Shown here piece after piece: positions 22,252 through 39,513 of a stretch of DNA of 64,000 bases (position 1 is the first letter of the stretch; every line of letters starts with the position of its first letter). Made by a program: the position numbers and the translations under genes. The notes under the pieces were generated by a model. That model had not been told where the DNA came from. It searched no databases and worked only from the letters and a program-made list of their open reading frames with translations. Origin of the DNA: Alphaproteobacteria bacterium (GTDB lineage Bacteria > Pseudomonadota > Alphaproteobacteria > SP197); contig CBDCRU010000002.1 of assembly GCA_965221115.1 (NCBI GenBank), forward strand, positions 452,045 through 516,044, written 5' to 3'.

Positions 22252-22794
22252 TTGACAAACATCGCGTGCCTTGGTTGGGGCTCACTGATCTGGGATCCTC
22301 GGGGCCTGCCTGTCCGGCGAGGCTGGTTCGATGATGGCCCACTGGTTCCTGTAGAATTCGCGCGGCTATCCCAAGATGGGCGGATCACCGTAGTCGTGGT
22401 GGATTCGGCTCGACCGCTGCGCTCTTTGTGGGCGTTGATGGACGGGGAAGACCTGCAGGAGGCGAGAGTACGCCTCCAGGAACGCGAGGGTGTGAGTAAT
22501 CGGGAATACATAGGGAGCTGGACGCGTGGCGATGGCGACTCCCCTTCTCTGCAGGGTCTCGCCGAATGGGCGTTCACCCGGAATATTGATGCGGTCGTTT
22601 GGACGGCGTTGCCGCCCAAGTTCGACAAGAGAAATGGGAGGCTGCCCACGGAAGATGAAGTGATCGCGTATCTCCAAGCGCTCAGGGGCGCAAAACGCGA
22701 CGAGGCCGAACGCTACATTCGGCTCGCGCCGCGCCAGATCGATACTGCGTATCGACGTCGAATCGAAGCGGAGCTCAATTGGGCGCCGGAATGA
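22252..22794 (+). CDS. gamma-glutamyl cyclotransferase-like (GGCT/ChaC/AIG2-fold) protein
   Basis: The N-terminal CLGWGSLIWDPRG resembles the ChaC/GGCT start [YF]GYGSL[IM]W. 180 aa. Confidence 0.4.
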   Translation: MTNIACLGWGSLIWDPRGLPVRRGWFDDGPLVPVEFARLSQDGRITVVVVDSARPLRSLWALMDGEDLQEARVRLQEREGVSNREYIGSWTRGDGDSPSLQGLAEWAFTRNIDAVVWTALPPKFDKRNGRLPTEDEVIAYLQALRGAKRDEAERYIRLAPRQIDTAYRRRIEAELNWAPE

Positions 22795-23159: not shown

Positions 23160-23834
23160 TTGATGCCAAGAAGAGCAGATCTCAGACGATTCTATAGTTT
23201 GGTGCGAAGGCTCGCGCCCAACATGGACGACAGGCACCTGCTTGGCCAACTTGAAAGTAGGGACTGCCCAAACCGAGGCGTTTACTTCTTCTTCGAGGAT
23301 GGCGAGCGGAGATCAGGCAGCGGAAATGGCGATCGCGTGGTTCGAGTGGGATCCCATGCACTGAACGCCGGAGAGACCACAACCTTGTGGGACAGGCTGT
23401 ACGATCACCGAGGTGCCGATTCACCACGTCAACGACAAAGCGGGTCGGTATTTCGAAATTGCGTTGGGAATGCCATCTGCCGTCGCAATCGTACTTTGGG
23501 GCCCGTGGATTGGCCGCACGACTCGAATCACGGAGATGTCGTTCGAATAGAAAGACTGATAAACCGCCATATGTGGCAGATGCCCGTCATTTTCATTCCA
23601 GTAAACCACCGCGTCCACCGCAGGTACATTGAGCGTAACGCAGTCGCGCTGCTGAGCGAGTATGGAGAAGAGAATCCTATAGATTGTCAATCCGGACGCT
23701 GGCTCGGTCGGCGGTGTAGCACGGAAAAGGTGAGGGAGTCCGGTCTCTGGCAAAGCGAATATGTCAACCACTATCACCGACCAGAATTTCTCGACCTGCT
23801 AGAAATGTATGTGGACCGGACCCTATGTCGCTAG
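23160..23834 (+). CDS. GIY-YIG-like nuclease-domain protein
   Basis: The N-terminal region RGVYFFFEDGERRSGSGNGDRVVRVGSHAL...LWDRLYDH matches GIY...YIG...R..H spacing. 224 aa. Confidence 0.4.
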   Translation: MMPRRADLRRFYSLVRRLAPNMDDRHLLGQLESRDCPNRGVYFFFEDGERRSGSGNGDRVVRVGSHALNAGETTTLWDRLYDHRGADSPRQRQSGSVFRNCVGNAICRRNRTLGPVDWPHDSNHGDVVRIERLINRHMWQMPVIFIPVNHRVHRRYIERNAVALLSEYGEENPIDCQSGRWLGRRCSTEKVRESGLWQSEYVNHYHRPEFLDLLEMYVDRTLCR

Positions 23835-23864: not shown

Positions 23865-24893
23865 TCAATTGGCTGCTTCTGTTGGGGTTGCTGGCCCTGT
23901 GGGGAAGTGGTCAGGCGCGGAGCGGCTGTCCACTTGTCCACAGGGCGCCTTCGGGTCGCGTCGTAGCGGGTCACGCGGCCTTCCGGGTGTGAGTGTCGAT
24001 GGGGACTGCGTTGCTCCGGTACCGGGCGAGGCATCGTGGTCCATGGAAGACGGCCAGGGTGCCGTCGGGGTACTCGTGGATCCGGACGTGCGCCTTGACG
24101 TAATGGGGGCGATCCGGGCCAGCGGGGAGCTGCAGGATCCGTCTGCCGTAGCGCACGGTGTTGTCGCGGCCGACGATGCGCTGTGCGTGGAGGCACAGGA
24201 TGTCGTCGATCTGGTCGGGCCGGAGCAGCGGCACGAAGGCTGAGTCTTCAAGCTCGGGCGGGATCGCGAAGTGGCGGTTGTGGTCGGGCAAGTAGGTGTC
24301 CTCGATGAAGCGGTTGGCGGCCTCGATGGTGGTGATACCGGCGAGATCGAGTTCCGTGACCAAGCGGTCCTGGAGGGTGCCGAAGACGCGCTCCGAGCAA
24401 CCCCTCGCCTCGGGAGAGTAGGCGGCGATGTGCTCGATGCCGAGCTGATGGAGCGCCCTTCCGACCTGGGTGCGCCGGTCCCTGTCCACCTTGTCGCCGG
24501 CTTCGGGGGTGTGGAAGTAGTGGCTGCCGCGGTCGGTGTAGAGCGCGCCTGGCAGGCCCTGGGCCGTGAACACCTGCTTGAGCGCCCGGAAGGTGGACGC
24601 GGTGCCTCCCTCGCCGAAACCTTGCCGAGCCGGCGATCGAACAGTCCCTCCAAGCCTTCCTCCTCGTAACGCTGCCGGTAGTGCCGGAAGTTGCGCTCCG
24701 ACATCCCCAGCAACTCCGCCGCATCCATCGCCGAGAGACGCTTCTCCTCAAAGCGTTCCAGCTCATCCCGAAACTTCTCCATCCTGCGTTCCTGAAGCCA
24801 TGCCGTCCGGTTCATCAGGGCGCCTCCCACCGGGACACCTAACCGGACAACTCGTGTGCTACCTAAACTGGACAGATCATGTGCTACCGACAC
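23865..24893 (-). pseudogene. IS481/ISNCY-like DDE (rve) transposase, frameshifted and internally deleted
   Basis: The HTH N-terminus frame (...GLFDRRLGKVSAREAP) switches to the catalytic frame (ALYTDRGSHYF...YSPEARGCSERVFGTLQDRL) near 24600. About 100 residues including the first catalytic Asp region appear to be missing. Confidence 0.65.
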
Positions 24894-24944
24894 CTTTCCT
24901 CAGCAGGTGTTGCGAGCAGCGTAATGCTGCGTTAAACTGCTCCA

Positions 24945-25145
24945 ATGGCAAGACCTCGAGGAAAACAGAAGACTGAGCGGGTGACCATCAACCTAGATCC
25001 TCGCTCCTATGAGATTTTGCTCAACGTGGCCAAACGCAATCAGGCACCCGTCGCACAAGTCGCACGGAGAGCGGTGGTGGAATTTCTTCGGCGAGAAGAA
25101 CCATCCATGGATCAATGGACGCTACCGCTGGAACCACAGGCATGA
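24945..25145 (+). CDS. ribbon-helix-helix (CopG/Arc-like) DNA-binding protein, candidate controller of the methyltransferase operon
   Basis: 66 aa. TINLDPRSYEILLNVAKRN...VARRAVVEFL is a typical RHH. Its stop overlaps the M1 start (ATGA). Confidence 0.6.
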   Translation: MARPRGKQKTERVTINLDPRSYEILLNVAKRNQAPVAQVARRAVVEFLRREEPSMDQWTLPLEPQA

Positions 25146-26365
25146 GTCCATGGGAGCGGGTTGGTGCGTCCGCGGCCTTGGAGCAACTCAACATGGACTT
25201 CGGACCGGTGACGGAAGACTTCGAGTCCGAAACTGCCCGCGACTTCGATATGTCCCCGGAGGAAGTACTCCAAACCGTAGATTGGGACTTTCCCGAACGT
25301 AGCGTCCAGGAGCCATTGGAAGCCATCCATCCCTATCCCGCTAGGTTCATCTCTGAAATTCCGCGCTCTCTGCTGGACGCACTGCCGTTACCATCGGGAG
25401 CCATTGTCCTCGACCCATTCTGCGGCAGCGGAACCACGCTAGTCGAATGTCAGCGCCGTGGAATTCCTGCGATCGGCATCGATCTCAATCCGATCGCCTG
25501 CCTCATGAGCCGTGTCAAAACTACACCAATTGCTGCAGGTCTTCGGGCTCACGCACTTGCCGTAGCCGAACGTGCGAGGACGGGGCCTGCAGTCGCCATT
25601 CCCGACATTCCCAACCTGGATCACTGGTTCCAGCCAGACATTCAAGACCAGTTGGCAAGACTCCTGGATGCCATCGATTCCTTGCCTGTTCCCGAACAAG
25701 ACAGCTTGAAGCTTGCCCTGTCGAGCATCATTGTGCGCGTGTCGAATCAGGAGAGTGATACGCGGTACGCGGCGGTCTCGAAGGACGTAGGCCCGGATGC
25801 TGTGCGGTCCTTGTTTCTGAGGGCGACAGAACGCTTAGAAACGGCGTTGCGCGCACGGCGCTATCGACTGAGTTCCGTGAGTGTGATCCAAGGGGATACT
25901 CTCAGTGTAGAACCTTCAAAAATTCGGGCTCCCGTGGGACTCGTCATCACATCGCCACCGTACCCAAACGCGTACGAGTACTGGCTGTATCACAAGTACC
26001 GCATGTGGTGGTTGGGATTCGACGCGCTGAATGTCAAAGAGCGAGAAATCGGTGCTCGGGCTCATTTTTTCAAGAAGAACCACCATACGCCGGAAGATTT
26101 TTCCCGCCAGATGCGCCAAACATTCGCACTGTTGGAATGCATTGTGATGCCGGGTGGGTATGTCTGTTTCGTTGTAGGGCGTTCGCAGATCCACGGGCGA
26201 ATTGTCGACAACGCGAAAATCATCTCCGAGGCTGGCGCGACGTGTGGGTTCAGCGCCTATTTCGCCACCGACCGCCTCCTTGCGGCCCATCGTAAGTCGT
26301 TCAATCTCTCTCACGCAAACATCAAGAAGGAGACGATCCTAATCCTGAGGAAGGAACCCTTCTGA
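25142..26365 (+). CDS. DNA amino-methyltransferase M1 (N6-adenine or N4-cytosine)
   Basis: Motif I VLDPFCGSGTT precedes motif IV SPPYPNAY. Translationally coupled on both sides. Confidence 0.8.
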   Translation: MSPWERVGASAALEQLNMDFGPVTEDFESETARDFDMSPEEVLQTVDWDFPERSVQEPLEAIHPYPARFISEIPRSLLDALPLPSGAIVLDPFCGSGTTLVECQRRGIPAIGIDLNPIACLMSRVKTTPIAAGLRAHALAVAERARTGPAVAIPDIPNLDHWFQPDIQDQLARLLDAIDSLPVPEQDSLKLALSSIIVRVSNQESDTRYAAVSKDVGPDAVRSLFLRATERLETALRARRYRLSSVSVIQGDTLSVEPSKIRAPVGLVITSPPYPNAYEYWLYHKYRMWWLGFDALNVKEREIGARAHFFKKNHHTPEDFSRQMRQTFALLECIVMPGGYVCFVVGRSQIHGRIVDNAKIISEAGATCGFSAYFATDRLLAAHRKSFNLSHANIKKETILILRKEPF

Positions 26366-27852
26366 TGCGTCTAACCTGGCATGGATACGCCTACTACCCG
26401 TACGAGCGGGAACTTGCGACCAGAGAGATAGCGGCCTTGCTCGGAAACGGCAACATGCAGACGGTCAGCGACGGCATTGAACTACGCGGAACAGTTTCCG
26501 CTGGCCCGGCCGAACGTCTCACTTACTTCTCCGGACGGATCAACGGTAGCGGTTTCGAGCCGACCATCCAAGCAAAGCTGGAACAAGCGGCACGCATTGG
26601 CGAGAAGAAACAGGCAACCCGCTATTCGGTCCATGGCTTGCACGAATACAAAGGCAAGTTCAATCCACAAGTCGTACGGGCGCTGCTGAACATCTTCCAG
26701 GTCGAACCAGGGCAACGCGTCATGGACCCGTTTTGCGGAAGCGGGACGACACTTGTGGAGTGTGCACACTTGGGGGCGTTCGCAGTCGGCATGGACATCA
26801 ACCCGCTGGCTACCCTCATCGCACGCGCCAAGCTGAACGCGCTTTGCACTCCGGTCGGGAAGCTCGAGAGAGAATTCGCGCGTCTCTCGCGATGGGCGCT
26901 GCAGCCCACGCTCACGAACGACGATGTACGTCGCGACGGCCGGATCGAATATCTAGAACGGTGGTTCAATGTCGGGATACTCGAGCAAATCGAGCTAGTG
27001 CGTTCCGCCATCGAGCGCGTCGATTCCGTGAGCGCCCGGCTCGTTTTTCTGACAATAGCCAGCAATTTGCTGCGCGACTACTCCCAACAGGATCCTAACG
27101 ACCTGCGTACGCGACGGCGCAAGTCCCCGCTTCCAGAGCTTCCGTTCACAGTCGCATTCCTCAAGGCCGTCCCCCCATTCCTGAAACGAGTCCAAGCGGC
27201 CCAGGATGTGCTCGGCTCCAATCTCCCTCGAGGACACGTGATACAGCGTGATACCACGGCAATTGCGATGGAGGAGGCAGGAGCGCCCTTCGACGCAGCA
27301 GTCAGCAGCCCCCCGTATGCGATGGCCCTCCCGTACATCGACACCCAGCGATTGTCTCTGGTTTGGCTGGGCCTGTGTCTACCCGATCAACTGGCAGACC
27401 TGGAAGCGCGGATGATCGGCAGCCGTGAAATGCGTGGCCAAGCACACCGCGTGTTGCTGCGGCGGCTAAAGGACAATGCCGACAACCTGCCTAGCTCCGA
27501 ATTCGACATTTGCCTCAAGCTACACCGGACTCTTGGCGAGAACGACGGCTTTCGCCGCAAAGCCGTGCCGCTCTTGCTGTACCGCTACTTCGCATCCATG
27601 CAGGCGAGTTTCCGAAGACTTCGAACCATGATGAAACCAGGGGCTCCTTACGGCCTGATTGTGGGGCACAATCACACGACAATCGGCGGTGTCCGGCACG
27701 AACTCAATACCCCTATGCACTTGGCCAGACTGGCAGGTGCAGAAGGGTGGAACATAGACGAACTGATCCCCCTGCAGACGTATCGGCGATACGGATACCA
27801 CGCGAGTAACGCGGTCTCCGCGGAAAGCCTGGTCATTCTGCGTAACGCGTAA
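26365..27852 (+). CDS. DNA amino-methyltransferase M2 (paralogue of M1)
   Basis: Motif I MDPFCGSGTT, motif IV SSPPYAMALPY. Same architecture as M1. Its start overlaps the M1 stop (TGATG). Confidence 0.8.
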   Translation: MRLTWHGYAYYPYERELATREIAALLGNGNMQTVSDGIELRGTVSAGPAERLTYFSGRINGSGFEPTIQAKLEQAARIGEKKQATRYSVHGLHEYKGKFNPQVVRALLNIFQVEPGQRVMDPFCGSGTTLVECAHLGAFAVGMDINPLATLIARAKLNALCTPVGKLEREFARLSRWALQPTLTNDDVRRDGRIEYLERWFNVGILEQIELVRSAIERVDSVSARLVFLTIASNLLRDYSQQDPNDLRTRRRKSPLPELPFTVAFLKAVPPFLKRVQAAQDVLGSNLPRGHVIQRDTTAIAMEEAGAPFDAAVSSPPYAMALPYIDTQRLSLVWLGLCLPDQLADLEARMIGSREMRGQAHRVLLRRLKDNADNLPSSEFDICLKLHRTLGENDGFRRKAVPLLLYRYFASMQASFRRLRTMMKPGAPYGLIVGHNHTTIGGVRHELNTPMHLARLAGAEGWNIDELIPLQTYRRYGYHASNAVSAESLVILRNA

Positions 27853-28024
27853 CAATTTACAGACTGCATTCCAGCGTCGTGTAGCGGCCGACTAGCTTGG
27901 TACCGGCGGCAAGTGACCCGGGAAAAGCCAGCATGCGCCTCGACCGACCAATTCCTTGCGTTGTTGGGCGGCATTGAACACATGTTGCAACGCTTCAAAC
28001 AAGTGCGACGCTTCGTCAACAAAC

Positions 28025-30048
28025 GTTAACCCGACTTCCGCAACTCGTCGCGCGATTCGACTGATTTGACGGTTTTCCGGCCCGAGAAGCGGCGGTTTTC
28101 CGTGCGTTGTCTCTCCGGAACGGCGTGTAGTGCCGACCTACCCCCTTGATTGGGCTGGCGAAGATCCGGACTCTGCGCCCATGTTCGTGCGCTGCAAGAG
28201 ACGCTTCAAGGACGGCAAGGAGCACCGCTACTGGAGCGTGGTGGAGAACGTCCGGGTCCACGGCGGCCGGGTTGTTCAGCGTCAGGTGCTCTATCTCGGC
28301 GAGATCAACGACAGCCAGCGCGCGGCGTGGTGCCGCTCGATCGAGGTGGTGGAGGGCAAGTCACGATCGCGGCAGATGGCGCTGTTTCCCGAAGACCGGG
28401 AGGCGCCGGCACTGGCCTGCGAAGTGGTGAAGATCAACCTTGCGCAGGTGGCGCTTCACGACCCGCGCCAGTGGGGAGCGTGCTGGCTGGCGCTATCCTT
28501 GTGGGATCGCCTGGACCTGGACCGCTTCTGGGATGAGCGTCTGCCGCCGAGCCGGCAAGGCACGCGGTGGCTGGACATCCTGAAGATCCAGGTCTGCTAC
28601 CGGCTGATCGACCCGGGCAGCGAGTGGCGGCTTCACCGTCACTGGTACGAGCACAGCGCGCTTCGCGATCTTCTGGGCAGCGAGCGGGCGATCGCCGACG
28701 ACACGCTCTATCGCTGTCTCGACAAGCTTCTGGCGCACAAGCAGGACTTCTTCTCGTTCTTGCGCGACCGCTGGGCGACCCTGTTCGAGGCGCGCTTCGA
28801 CGTGTTGCTCTATGACCTGACCTCGACCTACTTCGAGAGCGATCCTGCGTTCGATGACAAGCGCCGCTTCGGCTACAGCCGGGACAAGCGGCCCGACTGC
28901 GTGCAGGTGGTGATTGCGCTGATCGTCACGCCGGAGGGCTTTCCGCTGGCCTATGAGGTGATGCCGGGGAACACCTCCGACGACGCCACGCTGGCGGCGT
29001 TCCTCGAGAAGATCGAGGATCAGTATGGCCGCTCCGACCGGGTGTGGATCATGGACCGCGGCATCCCCACCGAGGAGACGCTGGCCGCGATGCGCGAGGG
29101 CGATGCGCCGGTGCGCTACCTGGTGGGCACGCCCAAGGGCCGGCTGACGCGGCTCGAGAAGGTGTTCCTGGGCCTGCCCTGGCAGGAGGTGCGCCAGTCG
29201 GTGAACGTCAAGCTTCTGGTCGAGGATGGCGAACTCTACGTCCTGGTGCACAGCGAGGGGCGACAGGTGAAGGAACGCGGCATGCGCCGGCGCCGGCTGA
29301 AGAGACTGTGGCGTCGACTGGTCGAGTTGCAGGGACAGTCGAACAGCCGGGATCAGTTGTTGCTCAAGCTCGGCGGCGCCAGGAAGGAGGCGGGCCGGGC
29401 CTGGAGCCTGGTCGACATCGCCGTGCCCGGGACCGACAGGGAACTCGCCGCCAACGGCTTCTCATTCCGCCTGCGGCGCGACCGGCTGCGCCGGGTCCGC
29501 CGCCGCGAGGGCCGTTACCTGCTGCGATCCAACATGGTCGCCGAAGACCCCGCCACGCTGTGGCATCTGTACATGAAGCTCGTCGAGATCGAGCAGGCAT
29601 TCAAGGAACTCAAGCACGACCTCGCAATCCGCCCCATCTTCCATCAACGCGAGGAGCGCATCGAGGCGCACATCTTCGTCTCGTTCATCGCCTACTGTCT
29701 GCTGGTGACCCTGAAGAACCTCGCCCGGCCGCGCGCCTCGGGCCTCACCCCGCGCGCCATCCTCGAGGCCTTCGCCACCATCCAGATGGTGGACGTCCAT
29801 CTGCCCACCACCGACGGCCGGCACCTCGTGCTGCCGCGCCACACTCGACCGAACAAGGAGCACCAGCTACTGCTGCACCAGCTCGGCATGACCCTGCCGC
29901 AACAGCCTGCGCCGCGGATCTCCGCCTGACGACGAGCGGGGCCGCCTCTCCGTTCGGTCCCGTGTAGTGCCGACCTTCGGAGGGCCGATCAAGACTATTC
30001 AATGAGTTAGCATCCTCACGACCCCCGAGTTGCGGAAGTCGGGTTAAC
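28025..30048 (+). mobile_element. IS1634-family insertion sequence (IS4 superfamily) with perfect 23-bp terminal inverted repeats
   Basis: IR-L GTTAACCCGACTTCCGCAACTCG at 28025..28047 is the exact reverse complement of IR-R at 30026..30048. Subterminal direct motif CGTGTAGTGCCGACCT at both ends. Confidence 0.85.
28130..29929 (+). CDS. IS1634-family transposase
   Basis: 599 aa. Motifs LYDLTSTYFES, DKRPDCVQVVIALIVTPEGFPLAYEVMPGNTSD and DRGIPTEETL. Confidence 0.85.
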   Translation: MPTYPLDWAGEDPDSAPMFVRCKRRFKDGKEHRYWSVVENVRVHGGRVVQRQVLYLGEINDSQRAAWCRSIEVVEGKSRSRQMALFPEDREAPALACEVVKINLAQVALHDPRQWGACWLALSLWDRLDLDRFWDERLPPSRQGTRWLDILKIQVCYRLIDPGSEWRLHRHWYEHSALRDLLGSERAIADDTLYRCLDKLLAHKQDFFSFLRDRWATLFEARFDVLLYDLTSTYFESDPAFDDKRRFGYSRDKRPDCVQVVIALIVTPEGFPLAYEVMPGNTSDDATLAAFLEKIEDQYGRSDRVWIMDRGIPTEETLAAMREGDAPVRYLVGTPKGRLTRLEKVFLGLPWQEVRQSVNVKLLVEDGELYVLVHSEGRQVKERGMRRRRLKRLWRRLVELQGQSNSRDQLLLKLGGARKEAGRAWSLVDIAVPGTDRELAANGFSFRLRRDRLRRVRRREGRYLLRSNMVAEDPATLWHLYMKLVEIEQAFKELKHDLAIRPIFHQREERIEAHIFVSFIAYCLLVTLKNLARPRASGLTPRAILEAFATIQMVDVHLPTTDGRHLVLPRHTRPNKEHQLLLHQLGMTLPQQPAPRISA

Positions 30049-31244
30049 TTGAAGGACGGGTCAGCTGGAGTCGGCCATTCCAAGATCATCGGGTCACCCG
30101 TCGTTGGAATGTGAGACCGATGTTGTTCCGCGAAATCACGGATGGCCGTCACCGGGCGCTTGGGGAGCACCATCCGGACATCCCCATGCCCGGTCTCTCC
30201 GGGGGCGTGGCCGTACACCATCACATTAGTTTCGACGAGCTGTTCACAATGGAGCCCGCGGTCGTCGGCATAGCGCAAGAGCATCGGAAACTCGCAGCGC
30301 GGACGTTCGAACCTACCTTGAAAGATCCCGAAACGCATGGTTGAGAGTGTCGCCACCGGGATGCTCACATTGGCGGTCCCGCCCCGTCCTTCGAAGTGCC
30401 GCGCGCTATCGCGGTTGAGCAGGGCAATCAACCCGATCGCACCACCCGGAAGCGGCGAGCCTGTAAGGGCGTTTGGGCCACGCGTCGGATCGGTCGCATT
30501 GGGATCGAGGAGGACATACGATGGAGCTATCTGTGGGTTTGGAACTGACACCATTCCACCCGTCCCGACCGGAGGGAATCGGACTAGGGGAACAAGTCCA
30601 ACCAACAGTCCAGCGGTAGCGCCTTGCGCGACAACGGGTGGACGGATTCGTGACGATCGAGTGCGCCTCAAGATGCCGACCGCTGCCAATGCGGCAATAT
30701 CGCTGGGTTTGCTGACGATATGGGCGCCGCCTGTAGATTCATCAAACCAAACATCGACAGCGGACGCGATCTCAGCAAGGATGCGGCCCGAATCTCCTTT
30801 GGCCGTGTCAAGGATGATTCCAGCTTCAACGTTCAGGCCGGATACACCCGAAGATGTTAAGTTCGCAGAGCCCACATATGCGGTTTGTGTGCCATCGGTC
30901 CGAACCGCGTGATAGACCTTCGGGTGATACAAGCCGGTCGAATAACTGACGACGGCTATGTTTGCGTCCCTGCGCGGCCAGCCGATTAGGTCCGCCAGAT
31001 TTTCCAAATCCGGCTGTGCCGTGTCGCCTCCATTGGATCCCAAGACGCAACGGATTGCCATGTCGTGTTCGGTGAGGCTTTGCAGGAGCGGCATCAACGG
31101 AGCAAGCCCTTCGGAAGAGAAGTACCCTGATTGGAAGCGAAAGTAGGAAATGTCCTGGTCACACAAACTCTTTAGCCACGTACCCACGGCATGGGCGGGA
31201 TTCCTGCTGCCAGTATCAATGTACCACATCTCGGCTTCTCCCAA
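30049..31244 (-). pseudogene. PLD-family (HKD) nuclease, candidate restriction endonuclease, 3' end cut by the IS1634 insertion
   Basis: Single HKD motif LYHPKVYHAVRTDGTQTAYVGSANLTSSG about 100 residues from the N-terminus. The ORF reads straight into IR-R (...PADPSFK|LTRLPQL). Joining across the IS restores about 50 more codons ending near 27897. Confidence 0.55.
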
Positions 31245-31530
31245 TCACTGCTCCGGCGATATCTTAGAGCACGGCGTCAGTCCGAGATCATGACTTCTCC
31301 CGTGCGTTCGTACCATCCCTCGGCCCCAACCGGCGGAGATTGGGTTGCAGACACAGTACATTGCCACAACGCTTAAGATTGATGCCATTGAGCCAATCTG
31401 GCCGAATTCGCACCCTCTCGATCATCTCGGCTTCCAAGCCAAGGCGATTGACCTTAAGCAAGTCGCAAAAGTGATTACCATTGATTGGGGCGATCGCAAT
31501 CGCGCCAGTTCGGGCAGCTTCGTCAGAAGC

Positions 31531-31760
31531 CTAGCTGTTGAAGTGATCCGTCATGATGAACAGGCCCTTATCTGCGCCTCCCTGTAAGGCACCGCCAAAC
31601 TCTCGGATTTCTTTGGCACCAACGCTCCCACTCCACCGCTTGCACCAGAAACAGATCCGAAACGAAACAAGGTTCACACGAAGCACGCCAACACTATCGA
31701 TTCCTCCATCGCCTGACTTTCCGTGCACACATCGACTCCGGCGAATCCCCCTTCGCGCCA
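31531..31760 (-). pseudogene. Mrr-family restriction endonuclease catalytic-domain remnant
   Basis: The C-terminal GDGGIDSVGVLRVNLVSFRICFWCKRWSGSVGAKEIREFGGALQGGADKGLFIMTDHF matches the Mrr_cat core. The N-terminal part is absent. Confidence 0.5.
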
Positions 31761-32277
31761 GGGCCTCTGCGACAGCCGTGCGAATGCGCCCGGCAACATC
31801 GCTCCCAGTACAGCTCTGAGAGATGGTTTCCGGTTCTCCTCCCACTCTGGGGTACCCTCCTCTGGTTCCACGACGTCCAATTCTGCCACCTGCACGGCAT
31901 CGACCCCTACCCGAGGGCGCTCGATGTCCTTCAGCGGGCCTCGATCCATCTCGACCCAGCTTTGGCCCAGCTAACGCCGCGCCTGTGGCAAGACCACTTC
32001 GCCGATGACCCGATGACATCCGATGTCACCAGGGCCGTATCCGCGAAGGTGCTGCAGGCAGCCTGAATTACAGACTGGCCAGTCGGTCGGGACTCCCGGT
32101 ATCAAGGCATCGCTAAATGTGCATATACGTCGGAACTCCAGCCACGCTCCTTCACGATCAGTACCAAATACGTCCAAGTCCACAACACGAGCCGCCCTAT
32201 TCCTCAACGTCGTTCGGTGGCATCATACCTATCCCCATACTCAAACACCGAACTATACCTTACAAGGAACTTAACCA

Positions 32278-34446
32278 ATGCAGCGAGTGACGATCAATCT
32301 CGAGAACTGCTACGGCATAAGAAGTCTTCATAGAAGGCTCGATTATTCTGCCACTCAGGCATTTGCCCTGTACGCGCCAAACGGAGTGATGAAATCTTCT
32401 TTGGCAAAAACATTTCAAGATGCCGCCGAGGAACGGGATTCGCAAGACCGCATTTTTCCAAATAGAACGACCTTCCGCCAGATTTCTGATGAGAACAACC
32501 AAGAAATACAAGGAAGACGTATTTTAGTGGTATTTCCTTATGACGAGGACTTGGGTGTCAATGAGCAGACCTCCACGTTGCTTTTGGATCCAACATTAAA
32601 GAAAGAGTACGATGATCTGCTTCGAGCCACCGCTGAAGCCAAATCCATTTTGCTCAAGCAAATTAAAGAACAATCAAACTCCAAATTAGACATGGAAACA
32701 GAGATATCCTCTGCAATCATGCCCACTCCGAATGAATTCGACGCGGCGCTGATCCGCGTCAAAAGAGAAGTTGAGGAGCAGAAAGATGCTGTATTTTCAG
32801 ACTTACAGTATGACAAAGTATTCAATGAAAAGGTTCTGAAAGCTCTAAATGCGAGAGACCTAAAGAACGCCATACACGAGTATGCTCAACGCTACAATGA
32901 ACTGTTAGCCGCATCTATCTATTTCAAGAAGGGTACATTCGACTATTACAACGCCGCACAAATCGCGAAGAGTCTCTCAGACAACGGATTTTTCGATGCA
33001 AGGCATTCAGTTAGTCTCAATGCGGATACTGGTAATCAGGAAATCACAGACAGAGATCAATTAGAAGAAATAATTTCGCAAGAAAAGAATGCAATCCTCG
33101 CAGACGTCGCACTTCGCAGAAAATTTGACGACGTTGCGCGTCAATTAATGCGAAATGCTGAATTGCGGGAGTTCTACAGTTACGTCCGCGACAACGAGGC
33201 AATTTTATCGCGACTAAACAACCCCGAAGGGCTCAGGCAGGACGTACTCAAGGATTACCTTAAAGTTCATGAAGCACTCTATAGCGATTGGATGACCAAG
33301 TATGATGCCGCCCAGAAACGTCGCAAAGAGCTAGAAGATGAAGCGCACGCACAGAGAACCCAGTGGGAAGCGGTAATTGACATATTCAACGAACGCTTCT
33401 TTGTCCCGTTTAAGCTGGAAGCCAAGAACAAGACGGATGTTATGCTTGGTCGTACATCAATCATTAATCTTGGCTTTACCTACATTGATGGAGACGACAG
33501 CGCTGAACTTAATCACAACGAACTGCTCCAGTCTTTGAGTACTGGAGAAAGAAAAGCCTTGTACGTGTTAAATGTAATTTTTGAGATCGAAACTCGGAAA
33601 ACCGCAGGGCAAGAAACACTCATAGTAGTGGATGATCTGGCGGACTCATTCGACTACCGAAACAAGTATGCGATTATTCAATACTTACGAGATATATCTG
33701 GTGAGGGTCTATTCAAATTACTCATTATGACGCATAACTTTGATTTTCTTCGGACTATAGAGAGTAGATTTGTTGGGTATTCGAACTGTCTTATGGCGTC
33801 GAAGGATGAGACTGGTATAACGATCTCCAGAGCGTCTGGTATACGAAACATATTTGCAAGAGATTGGAAGCGTCACTTTTTTGACGACCCAAAGAAGAAA
33901 ATAGCCTCCATACCTTTCTTGCGTAACTTAGTAGAAATGACTACCGGCGAGGATGATGCGCGTTATGGGGAACTCACATCCATGCTCCATTGGAAAGATG
34001 GATCGGATACTATCACCGTAGGTCAATTGGACACAATATATAACAGCATTTGTCAGGAAGACGGACAATCGACAGCGCCGGCGCAGTTGGTGTTTGATCT
34101 GATAGTGGAGGAAGGAGATAAATGCTTAGGCACGCACTCCGGGGTCCAGATGGAAAACAAAATCGTTTTGGCAATCGCAATACGTCTATTATCTGAGCGC
34201 TTTATGATTGATAAAATTGCAGATCCAGCGTTTGTAGCAACGTTGACTGCAAATCAGGCCCATGGTTTGACAGAGGAGTTTAAGCGGCGTTTTTCTGGTG
34301 AAGACAGCACAATAAGTGTTCTTGATCGTGTCAGTCTTATGACACCTGAAAATATACATGTAAATTCTTTCATGTATGAACCCATAATCGATATGTCTGA
34401 TGACCATCTGCGAAAGTTGTATTCGGATGTCAAGAGATTGAAGTAG
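32278..34446 (+). CDS. AAA_13 / RloC-PrrC-like ABC ATPase with a long coiled-coil insertion and a C-terminal effector-like domain (722 aa)
   Basis: Markedly AT-rich. N-terminal ITINLENCYGIRSL then a degenerate P-loop YAPNGVMKSS. About 370-aa helical insertion. Signature LSTGERKALYVL, Walker B LIVVDDLADSFD, H-loop LLIMTHNF. The C-terminal about 230 aa has an R-x3-E ... H arrangement (IRLLSE...ANQAHG). Confidence 0.6.
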   Translation: MQRVTINLENCYGIRSLHRRLDYSATQAFALYAPNGVMKSSLAKTFQDAAEERDSQDRIFPNRTTFRQISDENNQEIQGRRILVVFPYDEDLGVNEQTSTLLLDPTLKKEYDDLLRATAEAKSILLKQIKEQSNSKLDMETEISSAIMPTPNEFDAALIRVKREVEEQKDAVFSDLQYDKVFNEKVLKALNARDLKNAIHEYAQRYNELLAASIYFKKGTFDYYNAAQIAKSLSDNGFFDARHSVSLNADTGNQEITDRDQLEEIISQEKNAILADVALRRKFDDVARQLMRNAELREFYSYVRDNEAILSRLNNPEGLRQDVLKDYLKVHEALYSDWMTKYDAAQKRRKELEDEAHAQRTQWEAVIDIFNERFFVPFKLEAKNKTDVMLGRTSIINLGFTYIDGDDSAELNHNELLQSLSTGERKALYVLNVIFEIETRKTAGQETLIVVDDLADSFDYRNKYAIIQYLRDISGEGLFKLLIMTHNFDFLRTIESRFVGYSNCLMASKDETGITISRASGIRNIFARDWKRHFFDDPKKKIASIPFLRNLVEMTTGEDDARYGELTSMLHWKDGSDTITVGQLDTIYNSICQEDGQSTAPAQLVFDLIVEEGDKCLGTHSGVQMENKIVLAIAIRLLSERFMIDKIADPAFVATLTANQAHGLTEEFKRRFSGEDSTISVLDRVSLMTPENIHVNSFMYEPIIDMSDDHLRKLYSDVKRLK

Positions 34447-34567: not shown

Positions 34568-34592
34568 GAGGCTGCGGGGGCGTGGCAGCCTC
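34568..34592. terminator. GC-rich hairpin between convergent genes (GAGGCTGC-loop-GCAGCCTC), overlapping the stop of the minus-strand ATPase gene
   Basis: Perfect 8-bp stem seen in the sequence. No U-tract. Confidence 0.25.
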
Positions 34593-37500
34593 AACTTCCT
34601 ACGGTGGACGGTTGCCAACTGTGTTGGGCCTGTGTTTCTACTGGATCCGGTAGTTCGTGAATTCTGACTGCCGAACAAACGTCTTTGGCAATGGCGCAAA
34701 GATGTTGATGGTGCCCGAGATAGACGACCTGGCCGACCCTTGCCATGTCAGCAAAAACACGGAATGCTTCTCTTGCGCGGAAGTCGTCCGAGGTCTCGAG
34801 AATGTCGTCGGCGATGAAAGGGACCGGGCCGTGCTGGTCGACGAACTCCAGATAGCCCGCTACGCGCAAGGCGAGATAGAGCTGGAAACGAGCACCCTTT
34901 GACATCTGCGAGGCAATCTTAGCGTCTCCGCCGGCACTGATGCCGAGCAGCACTTCTCCCTTATCCGTCAACTGGGACTCCAACCGGGAATAGGCGCCTC
35001 GGCTGATTGTGCGGAAAGCCTCGGAGGCACGTTCCATCATGGTGCTGCGATGTTCGTCTCGATAGGTCTGCAACGCACGATCGGCGGCCTCGATGCCGAT
35101 TCGGGTGAGAACGTAGTCCAGTGCGCGCTCCTGGATGTCGAGAATACACGTGCGACGCTCCCCTTCGAGCCGAGCTACGGCTCCGTCACCACCTATCGCG
35201 TTGATAGCCTCTTTGGCGGTTTCCATTTCGTGATAGAGCTTCTGCGTTCGCTCCGAGATGTCGGCGAGGCGGGCCCCGGTCTCGGCAATCCTGTTCTCAA
35301 GGTCATCGTCGCTTGCGTCCGTGAGAGCGGCTTCCGCCGCGTCCAGCGATTCCACCTTCATCGCTTCGACCAAGCCGGCCTCGCGTTGGGACAGATCTTC
35401 GCGGAGGGTCTTGCGCCGTGATACCTGTTGCAGTTTCTCGTCCACTGCCCGAAGAGAATCCACGCCGAATGCCTCGAACATCGGAGAAGCAAGCGCGTGC
35501 AGCTCGGCCAGACCGCCTTCTACCGATGTGATTTCTTCAGAGAGAGCGGAGATTCTTTTGTTCAGCCCTTCGCGGGAGGTTTGATTGGCGACCGCCGCTA
35601 CCAAGCGAGCCTTGAGAGCATCACCCTGCACCACGGGGCGCTCGGGTTCGAATTCGCCGCCAAGTTCCTCCACCAGACCTCTTACCTCATCTGCGTAGGC
35701 GGCCTGATCGCTTTCCATTCGGACCACGCGGTTCTGAAGCTCGTCGCGTTTGGTCAGGGTGGAGTCGAGGAGCGTGACCTCTTCGAGTATTCGGCGGACC
35801 GCAGAGGTGGTGGGTTGGGGATCGAGATCTGCCAGCCAGGAACCGGACAGCCCTATCGTCCATTCCTCGCGCCAGGCTGCATCGTCATCGCCAGCTCGAC
35901 GCGCATCGCGTTGCCGACGGACCAGTTCGGCCTTTGCCCTGTCAAGATGTTCCTTCGCAGCGGTCGTCGCGGCTCGTCGTTCGGTGAAGAGCGCAAGGGC
36001 TCGGCGCGCGATCTCAATGAGCTCCTTTGGTTCACCGTCTGGATTGTGCGCAAGACTGGCTGCGGTCAAAGCTTCGCTGAGCCTTTGCCGATGGTCGAGG
36101 GCATCCCGCCGAGCGCGATCAATCTCCGCGCTCTCGCGACCCAGGCGGGCGAGCGTCTCCAGAATTCCGGCACGGCGCTCCATCCAACCCGACAATTTGG
36201 CAAGTGAGATGTCGGAGGGCATATCACCGGCGCCTGTACGGGACATGACAGCGACAGCGGAAGCAATCCGGCCTAGCACCGCCTGCTGGTTTCCGCGCGC
36301 CTGCACGAGTTCTTCTTCATTGCGTGCGATCTCCGTCTCCAAGTTCCGCAGCGCTTCGGCGGCTTGCCTTAACTCGGCCAACCCCGTCGCATGGGCGATA
36401 CGCCCGGATGTGGCTGCATCGTCGTCCTTCAACCGTTCTTCGAATGTGTCGGCGGACTCTTCGTCCAACACAGCGCGGTGAAGAGTCCATGCCTCGTCCC
36501 TCAGGACGCGCAGGCGCTCGGCCTCTTCATCTCCGACGACGCCGGTCTCCGCCGTTCGACGTTCGGCCTGTTCCGATAGGCGGCGGCTCTCCGCGGCAAG
36601 CCTGGTCTTTTCGCGGGCGATGCGCTCGATTTCCCGATGCGCTTCGTCGAGAGCAGAACTCCAATTCTGCATCTCCTCTTGTTCGGGAACATGAACGCCC
36701 GCCAGAGCTTCGGCTTCGCCACTCCAGGGATGAAGTTGCGCGAGTTGCTCGTCAATCTGGGCCTTTAGGTCGCGGCACTGCTTGTCGTGGAGCGCGAATC
36801 GCGCGGCGAAGTCGTCGGACTGTATCTCCTTCATGACCTCGTTCAGACGTCCGATCACATCGTCATTCGTGTCAGCGCCGTTCGAGGTCTTGGCGAATTC
36901 ACCAGTAGCAGTCGCGGCCGTGTCCTTTGCAGCTTCCAGTTCTTCGGCAGATGCCCTTACTCGTTCTTCGATCCCGGACCGCTGTTCAATAAGTTCATAC
37001 AGCACTCCCACCGTACCGGCGGGAATGACAAGGGTTCGGGAATCGGTGTCGGCGGCCTTGTTCAACCGCCGGACGACGGCTTCGATGGTGCCCACGTGTT
37101 CGGCGAGGTTCGTGCGGCGCTTCGGAAGGTCGTCTTCGGCTGTCACGTATCGGGCGCGCCCCTTGTCGAGCGAAGCGAGGCGGTCCTTCAGTTGGAGGAT
37201 CGCTTCGTCAGGAACCAGAGCTTCCCGCTCTTCGTGGCGGTTTCGTTGCTGGTCCCGTAGCCCTTTGACTCTCTCGGTGAGCTTGGGTTCATCGGCTATG
37301 AGGTTGGAGATCTGCGTGAACCAGAGCTCCGGCACCTCTGGCAATCCTTGCAAATCGGCAAGCTCTTCCCGTATGGGACGGATTTGCGCGAGTTGGCGCA
37401 AACCATCCATGCGACGCACGGCCTCTTCCCGACCCGCTTCAAGCTTGGCGCGTAGGGTCATCGCTTCGTCATAGGCGCTGCTGGCGGCGTCGCGTTCGGC

Positions 37501-38136
37501 AGCCAGACGGGCATGGGCGCTCGCGGCGGTGTCTAGCGTTTTCTTCTCACGTTCAAGCTGTTCAAGTCGGACCTTGAGCTCGTGGAGCTCAGTACTGCGG
37601 CTTCTCACCTTATGAAAGCTCTCGGCGGAGTCGCGAAGCCGGTTCAGGGTTTCGCTGAGTTCGACAAGTCCGGCACCCGTCGCGAAGAGGAGCTGACCCA
37701 GATTGCCCTTGCTTCGGAGGATTTGTTCTCCGCCCGCTTCCAGGCTGTCGTCGTCGAGCGAGAACATGGCCCTGTAGATTTCGCGGTTCATGCCTCCCAG
37801 GGCGTTGACAAGCAGGTCGTCCGACACCGATCTGCCGCTTTCGTCAAGGAGGCTGCCCTGGCGCCTTCTGATACGGACGAGACGCCGGACCGTGCCGCCG
37901 ATATTCAGGTCGGCCTCGACCTGCATAGCTTCGTAGCCATGCGCAAAGCCGTAGGGACTGCGGTGCTCAAATGCGAAGAGTAAGTCGAGGAAGCCTGCAA
38001 GGGCCGTGGACTTCCCGGATTCGTTGGGACCGTAGACCACGTGCAAGTCAGGTTTGCCTTGGATGGGTTCGCCGAAGTCGATGACGCGGTCAGAGAATAT
38101 TCCGTAACGGGTCAGAGCAAGACGGTCCAAGCGCAT
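34591..38136 (-). CDS. SbcC/YhaN-like coiled-coil ABC ATPase (about 1181 aa from the coupled ATG)
   Basis: N-terminal Walker A GPNESGKST. Very long Ala/Glu/Arg-rich coiled coil without a CxxC hook. C-terminal signature LSKGARFQLYLAL, Walker B FIADDILETSDD, H-loop VYLGHHQH. Its start overlaps the stop of the upstream phosphoesterase gene (ATGA). Confidence 0.8.
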   Translation of the reverse strand: MRLDRLALTRYGIFSDRVIDFGEPIQGKPDLHVVYGPNESGKSTALAGFLDLLFAFEHRSPYGFAHGYEAMQVEADLNIGGTVRRLVRIRRRQGSLLDESGRSVSDDLLVNALGGMNREIYRAMFSLDDDSLEAGGEQILRSKGNLGQLLFATGAGLVELSETLNRLRDSAESFHKVRSRSTELHELKVRLEQLEREKKTLDTAASAHARLAAERDAASSAYDEAMTLRAKLEAGREEAVRRMDGLRQLAQIRPIREELADLQGLPEVPELWFTQISNLIADEPKLTERVKGLRDQQRNRHEEREALVPDEAILQLKDRLASLDKGRARYVTAEDDLPKRRTNLAEHVGTIEAVVRRLNKAADTDSRTLVIPAGTVGVLYELIEQRSGIEERVRASAEELEAAKDTAATATGEFAKTSNGADTNDDVIGRLNEVMKEIQSDDFAARFALHDKQCRDLKAQIDEQLAQLHPWSGEAEALAGVHVPEQEEMQNWSSALDEAHREIERIAREKTRLAAESRRLSEQAERRTAETGVVGDEEAERLRVLRDEAWTLHRAVLDEESADTFEERLKDDDAATSGRIAHATGLAELRQAAEALRNLETEIARNEEELVQARGNQQAVLGRIASAVAVMSRTGAGDMPSDISLAKLSGWMERRAGILETLARLGRESAEIDRARRDALDHRQRLSEALTAASLAHNPDGEPKELIEIARRALALFTERRAATTAAKEHLDRAKAELVRRQRDARRAGDDDAAWREEWTIGLSGSWLADLDPQPTTSAVRRILEEVTLLDSTLTKRDELQNRVVRMESDQAAYADEVRGLVEELGGEFEPERPVVQGDALKARLVAAVANQTSREGLNKRISALSEEITSVEGGLAELHALASPMFEAFGVDSLRAVDEKLQQVSRRKTLREDLSQREAGLVEAMKVESLDAAEAALTDASDDDLENRIAETGARLADISERTQKLYHEMETAKEAINAIGGDGAVARLEGERRTCILDIQERALDYVLTRIGIEAADRALQTYRDEHRSTMMERASEAFRTISRGAYSRLESQLTDKGEVLLGISAGGDAKIASQMSKGARFQLYLALRVAGYLEFVDQHGPVPFIADDILETSDDFRAREAFRVFADMARVGQVVYLGHHQHLCAIAKDVCSAVRIHELPDPVETQAQHSWQPSTVGS

Positions 38137-39401
38137 CAGTCGGCTCCGTCCGCGCGGGTTTCTTGCAAGTGTGCCAGAACGATCTGACACCCCTCCTCGA
38201 TCAGTTGGTCAAGGATTTCGTTGCGCCTCTGCTCGCTGTCGCCAAAGACATCGCGCGCCGCGGGCGGCAGGGCCTTTTCGATCTCGTCGAGCACTTCGAG
38301 GGCCGAACGCCGGAAAGAGTCCGACGGCGCGATCTTGCTGCGAATCGTGTCCGCGACTTCCCCGATGGGTCCTACGGTGGGATCCCCTGGTGCGGTCACC
38401 TCCAGTGCGATTTTCTCGATCCAGGTTTGGCCTATCAGCTCAGCGCGGTGCAACGCTTCTGCTCGCACGAGCTCCGGATCGCGACGCAACCGCCACGCCA
38501 GCTCGGTTTCGCCTCGCATTTCGAGGCGTACCACCAGGTGATCCGACTGAGCCGCAGTCCGTGCGTCTGCCAGCTCCGCGGCGATACGCTCCACCATGGC
38601 GCGCTGGTCGGAAACGCCGCCCAAGTCGATTTGTATGCGTTCGAACTGGGCAACGCTTGTGGTGTGGGAACGGCAATCAATCGCACCGTCGTCTGCAACG
38701 CGAACAAGCGTCACTGATTTTGGTCCGGCCTCGCCGATATCGCGACCTTGCGGCATGCCGGGCATCACAATGTACGGCCTTCGGCTGTACACTTCGCGTG
38801 TATGGAGATGCCCCAGACACCAATAGTCGAAGCCAGTGCCGGCGACATCGGAAACGCTGCAAGGCGCATAGTCGTCGTGGTCGGCGGAACCCGCCAAGCT
38901 TGTATGAAGAAGGCCGATATTGAAGGCGTCTGGAACAGGGCTCCGGAAGCGAGGTATCAGGCTCTCCGGGGCATGGGGCCTTGCGAAGCTGATGCCGTGA
39001 ATGGCTACAGGGATCGTGCCACGGTCGTAGTCAAGCTCGACGGTCTCGGCTCGACCGCCGAAAACCTTCACGCCTTCCGGAAGAGTGAGCTCGCGCGTGA
39101 TCCGTGATTGGGCGTCGTGATTGCCGCGGATGATGAAGGTACGAATGCCGGCCTCGGTCAATCGCTGAAGCTGCGCGGCCAGAAACAGGGCGGTCTTCAT
39201 CGATGTCTGATCGCCATCGTAGAGGTCGCCCGCGATCATCAACGCATCCACTCGTTCGTCGAGGCAAAGATCGATGGTCCGCTCGAAGGCGAGACGGGTC
39301 GCATCGCCGATCAGTTCTGCAAGATCGGGATTTAGCAACGCGAGCGAGCGCAGCGGCGAGTCGAGATGGACATCCGCAGTGTGAACGAAGCTGAAAGACA
39401 T
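38136..39401 (-). CDS. SbcD/Mre11/YhaO-like metallophosphoesterase (DNA repair exonuclease family)
   Basis: Motif I FVHTADVHLD, IAGDLYD, GNHD and the later His motifs. About 421 aa from MSFSFVH. Confidence 0.8.
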   Translation of the reverse strand: MSFSFVHTADVHLDSPLRSLALLNPDLAELIGDATRLAFERTIDLCLDERVDALMIAGDLYDGDQTSMKTALFLAAQLQRLTEAGIRTFIIRGNHDAQSRITRELTLPEGVKVFGGRAETVELDYDRGTIPVAIHGISFARPHAPESLIPRFRSPVPDAFNIGLLHTSLAGSADHDDYAPCSVSDVAGTGFDYWCLGHLHTREVYSRRPYIVMPGMPQGRDIGEAGPKSVTLVRVADDGAIDCRSHTTSVAQFERIQIDLGGVSDQRAMVERIAAELADARTAAQSDHLVVRLEMRGETELAWRLRRDPELVRAEALHRAELIGQTWIEKIALEVTAPGDPTVGPIGEVADTIRSKIAPSDSFRRSALEVLDEIEKALPPAARDVFGDSEQRRNEILDQLIEEGCQIVLAHLQETRADGAD

Positions 39402-39513
39402 GGCGGGCCTAGTGTCAGTTCGTGACCTGCTCTTCACCACACTGGCGTCGTGGCGGGTACCCTTACGAGTTCGCCCGCATCATGGGTCAGCTCAGGCTGT
39501 ATCGGCAATTCAA

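Follow-up and report, generated by a model that had tools for sequence, protein, structure and literature searches.

The 64-kb stretch analyzed here (64,000 nucleotides of contig CBDCRU010000002.1 from an Alphaproteobacteria bacterium, positions 452,045 to 516,044; hereafter the window) very likely contains a BfiI-type restriction-modification (R-M) module whose endonuclease gene has been disrupted by an insertion sequence (IS) of the IS1634 family. In the open reading frame (ORF) list the module comprises four genes: three on the plus strand, encoding a small ribbon-helix-helix (RHH)-like protein and two methyltransferases, M1 and M2, and a convergent one on the minus strand, R, encoding a phospholipase D (PLD)-family nuclease. 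A first-pass annotation made from the sequence alone had drawn this outline; we found the features it described in place or close by, and its interpretation largely holds. Neither a missing PLD-fold match nor an interrupted joined frame, which it had named as refuting results, was observed. The assignment is carried by gene content, homology, predicted fold, the structure of the IS, the exactness of the restored nuclease ORF and the co-conservation of the genes. Judging from its architecture and by analogy with BfiI, the module would probably be of Type IIS, with an asymmetric recognition site. Its parts are the following.

24945–25145, plus strand: RHH-like gene, 66 amino acids (aa), from the ORF list
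25142–26365, plus strand: M1, 407 aa from the ATG at 25142 (an alternative ATG at 25115 gives 416 aa)
26365–27852, plus strand: M2, 495 aa, from the ORF list
27892–28030, minus strand: 3' fragment of the nuclease gene, 45 codons and the TAG stop at 27892–27894, including the left GTTAAC copy at 28025–28030
28031–30042, plus strand: IS1634-family element, 2012 bp
30043–31229, minus strand: 5' fragment of the nuclease gene, codons 1–396, encoding the PLD catalytic domain, the linker and most of the putative B3-like domain
31244 to 29745, minus strand: nuclease ORF as read through into the IS, from the ORF list

The three plus-strand genes overlap start to stop, as first described: the stop of the RHH-like gene and the start of M1 share ATGA (context GC-ATGA-GT), the stop of M1 and the start of M2 share TGATG, and GAGGAAGGAA directly precedes the ATG of M2. 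The true start of M1 is probably the ATG at 25142 rather than that at 25115. For the nuclease, we place the true start at ATG 31229 because its homologues begin M-x-Y-I-D.

Excision of the IS restores a full-length nuclease gene

The 3' end of the nuclease ORF runs directly into an inverted repeat, as annotated at first pass, and the element behind it is confirmed as a member of the IS1634 family. Its transposase gene (28130–29929, plus strand) is intact, encodes 599 aa, matches Pfam DDE_Tnp_1 and scores 307 bits against NCBIfam NF033559 (transpos_IS1634), for which the cut-off is 100. Perfect 23-nt terminal inverted repeats lie at 28025–28047 and 30026–30048, and the outer 6 nt of each repeat form the palindrome GTTAAC (28025–28030 and 30043–30048). 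We read GTTAAC as a 6-bp target-site duplication, because only when one copy is kept does the nuclease align without a gap to its homologues; the IS proper is then bounded by 17-bp perfect inverted repeats at 28031–28047 and 30026–30042. Excision of 2018 bp, keeping one GTTAAC, yields a 444-codon ORF, 439 codons of which follow from ATG 31229, and the junction reads ...PSFK-LT-FVDE..., against the homologue consensus ...FKATF.D.... Deletion of 28025–30048 also leaves an open frame, of 442 codons, but with a 2-aa gap against all homologues, and an IS of 2024 bp without target duplication was rejected on this ground. The earlier claim that splicing across the IS restores the frame therefore holds, with the excised length corrected from 2024 to 2018 bp and the gain from about 50 to 45 codons (LT plus 43). 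The restored stop is 39 bp from the stop of M2.

An open frame of 45 codons would on its own be weak evidence that the two fragments belong together, while the homology of the tail argues for it strongly. More than 100 intact relatives end in a sequence homologous to this tail, whose 43 residues are 56% identical to residues 424–465 of an intact 469-aa homologue, P0002 (E = 2e-13), and include A415, G423, A426, C427, W428 and L429, which are invariant or nearly so among 86 homologues. Apart from the IS, no frameshift or stop interrupts the 439 codons. The insertion looks recent, since the inverted repeats and the duplication are perfect and the 439 codons bear no other lesion. The IS is the sole copy within the window, and a megablast search with it against the plasmid collection gave no match. 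A public record, P0001, lists a 494-aa protein with PLD domains as intact; because its last ~100 residues come from IS1634, it is a nuclease-IS chimera to be treated as a pseudogene.

The insertion lies at codon 395–396 of the nuclease and appends ~100 IS-internal nonsense codons to its ORF. In the AlphaFold model, residues 393–429 form a confident strand-helix-strand (predicted local distance difference test, pLDDT, 95–98) at the core of the C-terminal domain (C-domain), and these elements are lost through the IS, so that the truncated product should lose specific DNA binding. Since the removed elements carry family-invariant or near-invariant residues, the DNA-binding domain is unlikely to fold. 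The model thus suggests that the insertion has very probably abolished site-specific restriction. It is quite improbable that the IS is not inactivating, with the 396-residue product and its IS tail still restricting DNA or acting as a non-specific PLD nuclease. The PLD domain and the linker are intact, the frame stays open for ~100 codons into the IS, and the isolated N-terminal domain (N-domain) of BfiI is reportedly a non-specific nuclease; against this stand the loss of the 393–429 core with its conserved residues and the counter-selection that an unregulated non-specific nuclease would meet.

The restored nuclease resembles BfiI in fold

Sequence families place the N-terminal part of the nuclease among PLD enzymes, in agreement with the single HKD motif noted at first. 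It matches Pfam RE_NgoFVII (PF09565) over residues 38–149 with 37.0 bits against a cut-off of 23.8 (E = 2.6e-9), and it also matches PLDc_2. The PLD catalytic domain spans residues 1–185 and has a single HxK motif; H102, K104, N123 and E135 are invariant across the 86 aligned homologues, and HPK and GSANLT are conserved across loci. The spacing of the four residues mirrors that of the BfiI catalytic residues H105, K107, N125 and E136 (PMC4081073). A database search with the restored protein returned 143 relatives, mostly of 440–470 aa, more than 100 of which cover 98–99% of its length; their source names are 'NgoFVII family restriction endonuclease' or 'phospholipase D family protein'. Sequence searches of the PDB with the single nuclease sequence and with a 14-sequence profile gave nothing meaningful, and the link to BfiI emerged solely from fold comparison. 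A tblastn search with the restored nuclease against the plasmid collection found no match.

The AlphaFold (AF2) model of the restored nuclease, computed with 86 homologues, has a pLDDT of 93 and two domains joined by a low-confidence linker (residues 190–230). When this model was compared with the PDB by Foldseek, BfiI (2c1l) was the best match for the whole protein (E = 1e-12), with both domains aligned, followed by the PLD domain of SauUSI, NgoAVII-R (4rct, E = 1.6e-8) and many PLD nucleases. The Foldseek probability was 1.00 for BfiI, SauUSI, NgoAVII-R, NucT, PLD3/4 and Zucchini. The C-terminal 212 residues modelled alone reached a pLDDT of 95, and BfiI was again the best match (E = 8e-4, TMq 0.47), with further matches to the B3-like N-domain of LlaJI.R1 and to the B3 domains of plant ARF proteins. 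Based on these matches, we read the C-domain as a putative B3-like DNA-binding pseudobarrel, bigger than that of BfiI. The C-domain family is small, with 120 clusters at 50% identity among 1.84 billion proteins; the domain sits C-terminally in full-length members of ~400–560 aa, and shorter matches resemble fragments.

As a separate observation on the linker, the window nuclease and one homologue, P0013, are without the ~35–40-aa Ser/Ala/Pro-rich insert present in most homologues, and the linker of the window nuclease is basic and hydrophobic, in contrast to the acidic linkers of BfiI and NgoAVII.

Two paralogous methyltransferases accompany the nuclease

M1 and M2 are paralogues (29% identity over 273 aa, E = 2e-27) and, as had been proposed, amino-methyltransferases with motif I ahead of SPPY. 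M1 matches Pfam N6_N4_Mtase above the cut-off (3e-15), and M2 matches both UPF0020 (7e-10) and N6_N4_Mtase (1e-8). In PADLOC each has a full-length match to a different MTase_II model, M1 to PDLC03364 (1.5e-130) and M2 to PDLC03377 (1.5e-131). Motif I, FCGSGT, lies at residue 102 of M1 and 123 of M2, and the motif IV sequence SPPY follows ~180–190 residues later, at residues 280 and 315; SPPY and FxGSG are invariant among the orthologues of both proteins. Compared with the beta-class relatives in Pfam and the PDB, whose alignment is confined to the motif I region, this motif order is permuted. As a rule of thumb, SPPY goes with N4-methylcytosine, so that the modified base is probably N4-cytosine and M1 and M2 are probably N4-cytosine enzymes. 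The presence of two paralogous methyltransferases suggests that each would modify one strand of an asymmetric site.

The motifs of M1 and M2 are intact despite the IS, as is the candidate promoter described below. With the RHH-M1-M2 operon and its promoter preserved, the host most likely still methylates the site, and M1 and M2 would most likely be left as an orphaned methyltransferase pair with site methylation persisting.

The module is conserved across several phyla

We compared loci by tblastn, 80 from a scan of species-representative genomes and three identified earlier (L001–L003). In the three earlier loci, from Paracoccus suum (L001, CP030918), Gaopeijia maritima (L003, CP144380) and a metagenomic contig, R is accompanied by convergent M2 and M1 genes overlapping by 1 nt and then by a gene of 59–70 aa; the Gaopeijia maritima homologue is 39% identical to the window nuclease. 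Wherever a full-length homologue came with sufficient flank, convergent M2-M1 genes stood beside R (21 of 21 loci), and these loci come from Alpha-, Beta- and Gammaproteobacteria, Leptospirillia, Myxococcota and Gemmatimonadota. The intact module was found in about 20 species. A literature search for characterized members, made through the name 'NgoFVII', returned nothing relevant to this sub-family.

The 21 loci are compact, and no conserved ATPase gene stands beside the module in L001–L003; this genomic evidence argues for BfiI-like stand-alone action over the mode of NgoAVII and CglI. It is very unlikely that the nuclease is instead an R-subunit of the NgoAVII/CglI kind, needing a separate ATPase (N-protein), in which case the module would be incomplete even without the IS. 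This possibility draws on the Pfam placement of the N-domain in RE_NgoFVII, on the strong structural match to NgoAVII-R and on the two-domain build shared by R.NgoAVII and BfiI (PMC4267654). It is countered by the lack, in the window, of an adjacent ATPase gene belonging to the module; the nearby ATPase related to PDC-S46 is divergent, occupies a low-GC patch of its own and has no counterpart at the homologous loci. Moreover, systems of the NgoFVII and CglI type have one 5-methylcytosine (m5C) methyltransferase, not two amino-methyltransferases, and BfiI outscores NgoAVII whether the whole protein or the C-domain is compared.

About 30 further loci (L025–L055) share the PLD N-domain (40–49% identity) and have no counterpart of the C-domain of the window nuclease; all of them except L028 also lack M1 and M2. 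In L043 (Sphingomonas arvum) and L045 (Gordonia jinhuaensis), a single convergent 530–560-aa methyltransferase of the GxYYTP type stands in their place, and L028, from a Roseovarius metagenome-assembled genome (MAG), has a distantly related M1/M2 pair. This fusion of the PLD N-domain to unrelated C-domains appears as a natural shuffling of the cleavage module among specificities. The co-variation of C-domain and methyltransferases is as expected if both read the same DNA sequence, and it points to one specificity shared by the C-domain and M1/M2. It is very unlikely that the PLD protein and M1/M2 are not cognate, the former being a methylation-dependent or other defence nuclease and the latter orphan or regulatory neighbours: PADLOC has no REase_II model that fits the nuclease, giving only weak matches to the PLD models PbeA and DrmC, but the genes co-occur in a fixed convergent geometry at all 21 loci from several phyla, and precisely where another C-domain takes the place of that of the nuclease, M1/M2 are also missing or exchanged, the signature of a shared specificity.

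Two further loci in this survey carry damage of their own. In Yoonia vestfoldensis DSM 16212 (L024, NZ_KB907980.1, 5995–8005), the homologue stops at residue 297 with IS66-type tnpA/tnpB genes next to it, an independent IS disruption within the same nuclease family; the contig ends before the M1/M2 region. In an Alphaproteobacteria MAG (L011, JAZIHR010000014.1, 1997–4091), the homologue breaks off near residue 409, directly against a central part of M1 (residues 16–216); M2 is missing and the RHH gene is kept, apparently through a deletion that inactivated the module as a whole.

A small RHH-like protein heads the methyltransferase operon

The 66-aa gene, first annotated as an RHH regulator, is present, and its product shows the strand-helix-helix pattern typical of RHH proteins; its family membership lies below threshold, with a sub-threshold RHH_9 match that recurs in eight of nine orthologues and a weak match to ParG (E = 0.23). 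Pfam gave it no match to a helix-turn-helix (HTH) family. Orthologues 61–75% identical occupy the equivalent position in 10 loci. Directly upstream lies a candidate promoter.

24910–24944, plus strand: candidate RHH-M1-M2 promoter, TTGCGA (24910–24915, -35-like), 17-nt spacer, TAAACT (24933–24938, -10-like), 6 nt, ATG

The arrangement TTGCnn-17 nt-TAAAC(T)-6 nt-ATG is kept upstream of the RHH gene in nine aligned loci, in which the TTG, GCTGC-like and TAAAC columns are invariant and the distance to the ATG is fixed. A consensus sigma-70 scan of the region matched no promoter, and the proposal therefore rests on cross-species conservation. With a -10-like box 6 nt from the ATG, a leaderless or near-leaderless mRNA is predicted. 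The spacer contains an inverted repeat, GCAGC (24916–24920) and GCTGC (24926–24930) separated by N5, which is a candidate operator. The RHH-like protein is a putative transcriptional controller of the module, and autorepression of the RHH-M1-M2 operon would be the simplest reading.

Proposed mechanism and points that weigh against it

We propose that the module is horizontally mobile and of the BfiI type, and that a promoter of the leaderless kind would drive the RHH-M1-M2 operon. By analogy with BfiI, an intact module would have M1 methylate one strand of an asymmetric site and M2 the other, and the nuclease would dimerize through its PLD domains to form one metal-independent HxK active site. 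Its B3-like domains would bind the unmethylated site, and the enzyme would cut nearby without metal ions, the restored 439-aa endonuclease acting without an ATPase partner. In the window, an IS1634-family element has inserted at GTTAAC, duplicated 6 bp and cut the last strand-helix-strand off the DNA-binding domain.

Several findings do not sit easily with parts of this proposal. Foldseek supports the B3-like assignment of the C-domain with moderate scores (TM 0.47, E = 8e-4), and BfiI has a C-domain ~50 aa smaller. The RHH_9 match of the 66-aa protein reaches 16.8 bits against a cut-off of 23.4 (E = 0.006). The region upstream of the nuclease gene showed neither a repeat of the RHH promoter/operator motif nor conservation across loci; we therefore make no claim that the RHH-like protein controls R, a role that is unsupported. 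Finally, the truncated protein retains an intact PLD domain and could have residual non-specific or altered activity.

More specifically, the intact module may represent an uncharacterized sub-family of BfiI-like, metal-independent, stand-alone Type IIS systems, with a new specificity through an enlarged B3-like domain and with an RHH-type controller of leaderless mRNA, in place of a classical HTH C-protein, heading the methyltransferase operon; we put this combined reading at somewhat short of an even chance.

Genomic context of the module

The module lies inside a ~14-kb island (~20.5–34.5 kb of the window), between housekeeping genes (gamma-glutamyltranspeptidase, FAD oxidoreductase and ABC transporter) and an SbcCD-like pair. 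The latter (34591–39440, minus strand) consists of a gene for a 1199-aa AAA_27 ATPase followed by an overlapping gene for a 434-aa metallophosphoesterase, resembles SbcC/SbcD and borders the island. Upstream of the nuclease on the same strand is the Mrr remnant recognized at first pass.

31289–32019, minus strand: Mrr-type (Type IV) restriction pseudogene, Pfam Mrr_cat 1.2e-13 on a partial profile, PADLOC mREase_IV

In three-frame translation, the N-terminal part of this pseudogene is set apart from the catalytic core by one frameshift or more, and a TAG stop falls in frame at 31531–31533, beyond which the C-terminal sequence resumes in frame. It is not part of the R-M module.

Beyond it, an intact gene at 32278–34446 (plus strand) encodes a 722-aa protein with a full-length PADLOC match to PDC-S46 (E = 2e-261). 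It lies in a patch of 42–45% GC against 55–70% in the surroundings, which suggests a separate recent acquisition. On the other side of the module, 23160–23834 (plus strand) encodes a 224-aa protein matching PADLOC PDC-M57B (E = 9e-49); the 180-aa ORF upstream of it (22252–22794) has no PADLOC or Pfam match. Between this gene and the module, 23865–24893 (minus strand) holds a frameshifted transposase of the ISNCY family, with its N-terminal HTH and C-terminal catalytic parts in different frames; the C-terminal part matches NF033594 (E = 4e-55). About 15 bp separate this transposase gene from the -35 box of the RHH-M1-M2 promoter, upstream of which it lies.

Implications

For the host genome the finding means little: the island, home to the Mrr pseudogene and to IS remnants, has a further defence gene in decay, with a methylation motif that persists without restriction as the likely practical outcome. 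The value of the finding lies chiefly in the relatives that are intact, from which a rare class of metal-independent enzymes could gain a new specificity. Restriction enzymes that combine PLD and B3 domains are rare, and to our knowledge only BfiI/BmrI and NgoAVII/CglI have been studied; catalytic domains of the BfiI type are attractive in that they cut without metal ions. In the present nuclease family, ~100 natural variants combine a DNA-binding domain of a distinct kind with methyltransferase pairs that match it, and the co-variation of nuclease C-domain and methyltransferases makes the family a ready set for linking the sequence of the B3-like domain to DNA specificity. Should the new sub-family prove real, it would add a new specificity and a new regulatory layout to a rare enzyme class useful as a cleavage module.

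Comparison with known systems

The closest known structure, for the whole protein and for the C-domain, is that of BfiI/BmrI, metal-independent PLD-family enzymes of Type IIS (PDB 2C1L). Like BfiI, the window nuclease stands alone without an ATPase partner and is accompanied by two amino-methyltransferases; the two methyltransferases of BfiI are reportedly N4-cytosine enzymes. The features of BfiI that can be compared in silico are all found here, namely the PLD motif and fold, a B3-like domain, the absence of an ATPase and two methyltransferases, and by analogy the chemistry and geometry of cleavage would follow BfiI as well. Unlike in BfiI, sequence identity is ~12%, with no sequence-level match to any PDB chain, and the C-domain has ~210 aa, compared with ~160 aa in BfiI, and belongs to a small separate family. 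The modules also differ: here an RHH-like gene heads the methyltransferase operon, and the methyltransferases are permuted relative to the beta-class Pfam model.

With NgoAVII, NgoFVII and CglI, the window nuclease has in common the Pfam family PF09565 and the PLD plus B3-like build. Enzymes of this group require an ATPase subunit (N-protein) and ATP (PMC4267654). Their recognition sequence is the quasi-palindromic GCSGC, and a single m5C methyltransferase accompanies them. Unlike these systems, the window module has no conserved ATPase and has two amino-methyltransferases. The first-pass annotation had named BfiI and NgoFVII together as enzymes paired with two methyltransferases; Of the two, BfiI and not NgoFVII is the right analogue, because NgoFVII and CglI have one m5C methyltransferase as their partner and NgoAVII depends on an ATPase.

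The operon also resembles the classical C-protein systems (PvuII, AhdI, Esp1396I), in which a small gene for a DNA-binding protein leads the operon, the promoter lies near the ATG and an inverted repeat lies inside the promoter; classical C genes are leaderless. Classical C-proteins have an HTH and are co-transcribed with the nuclease, whereas the protein here is RHH-like and would be co-transcribed with the methyltransferases. A classical C-protein of the Xre type, binding C-boxes ahead of its own gene and of the nuclease gene, was considered for it and rejected, given the missing HTH match, the place of the gene with the methyltransferases instead of R, and a motif that is not repeated upstream of R; the protein may still act in the manner of a controller.

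Disruption of restriction genes by IS elements is commonplace, and orphan methyltransferases remain behind. The window module resembles other IS-inactivated restriction genes, with nothing unusual in this respect: a mobile element has broken R and left both methyltransferase genes intact.

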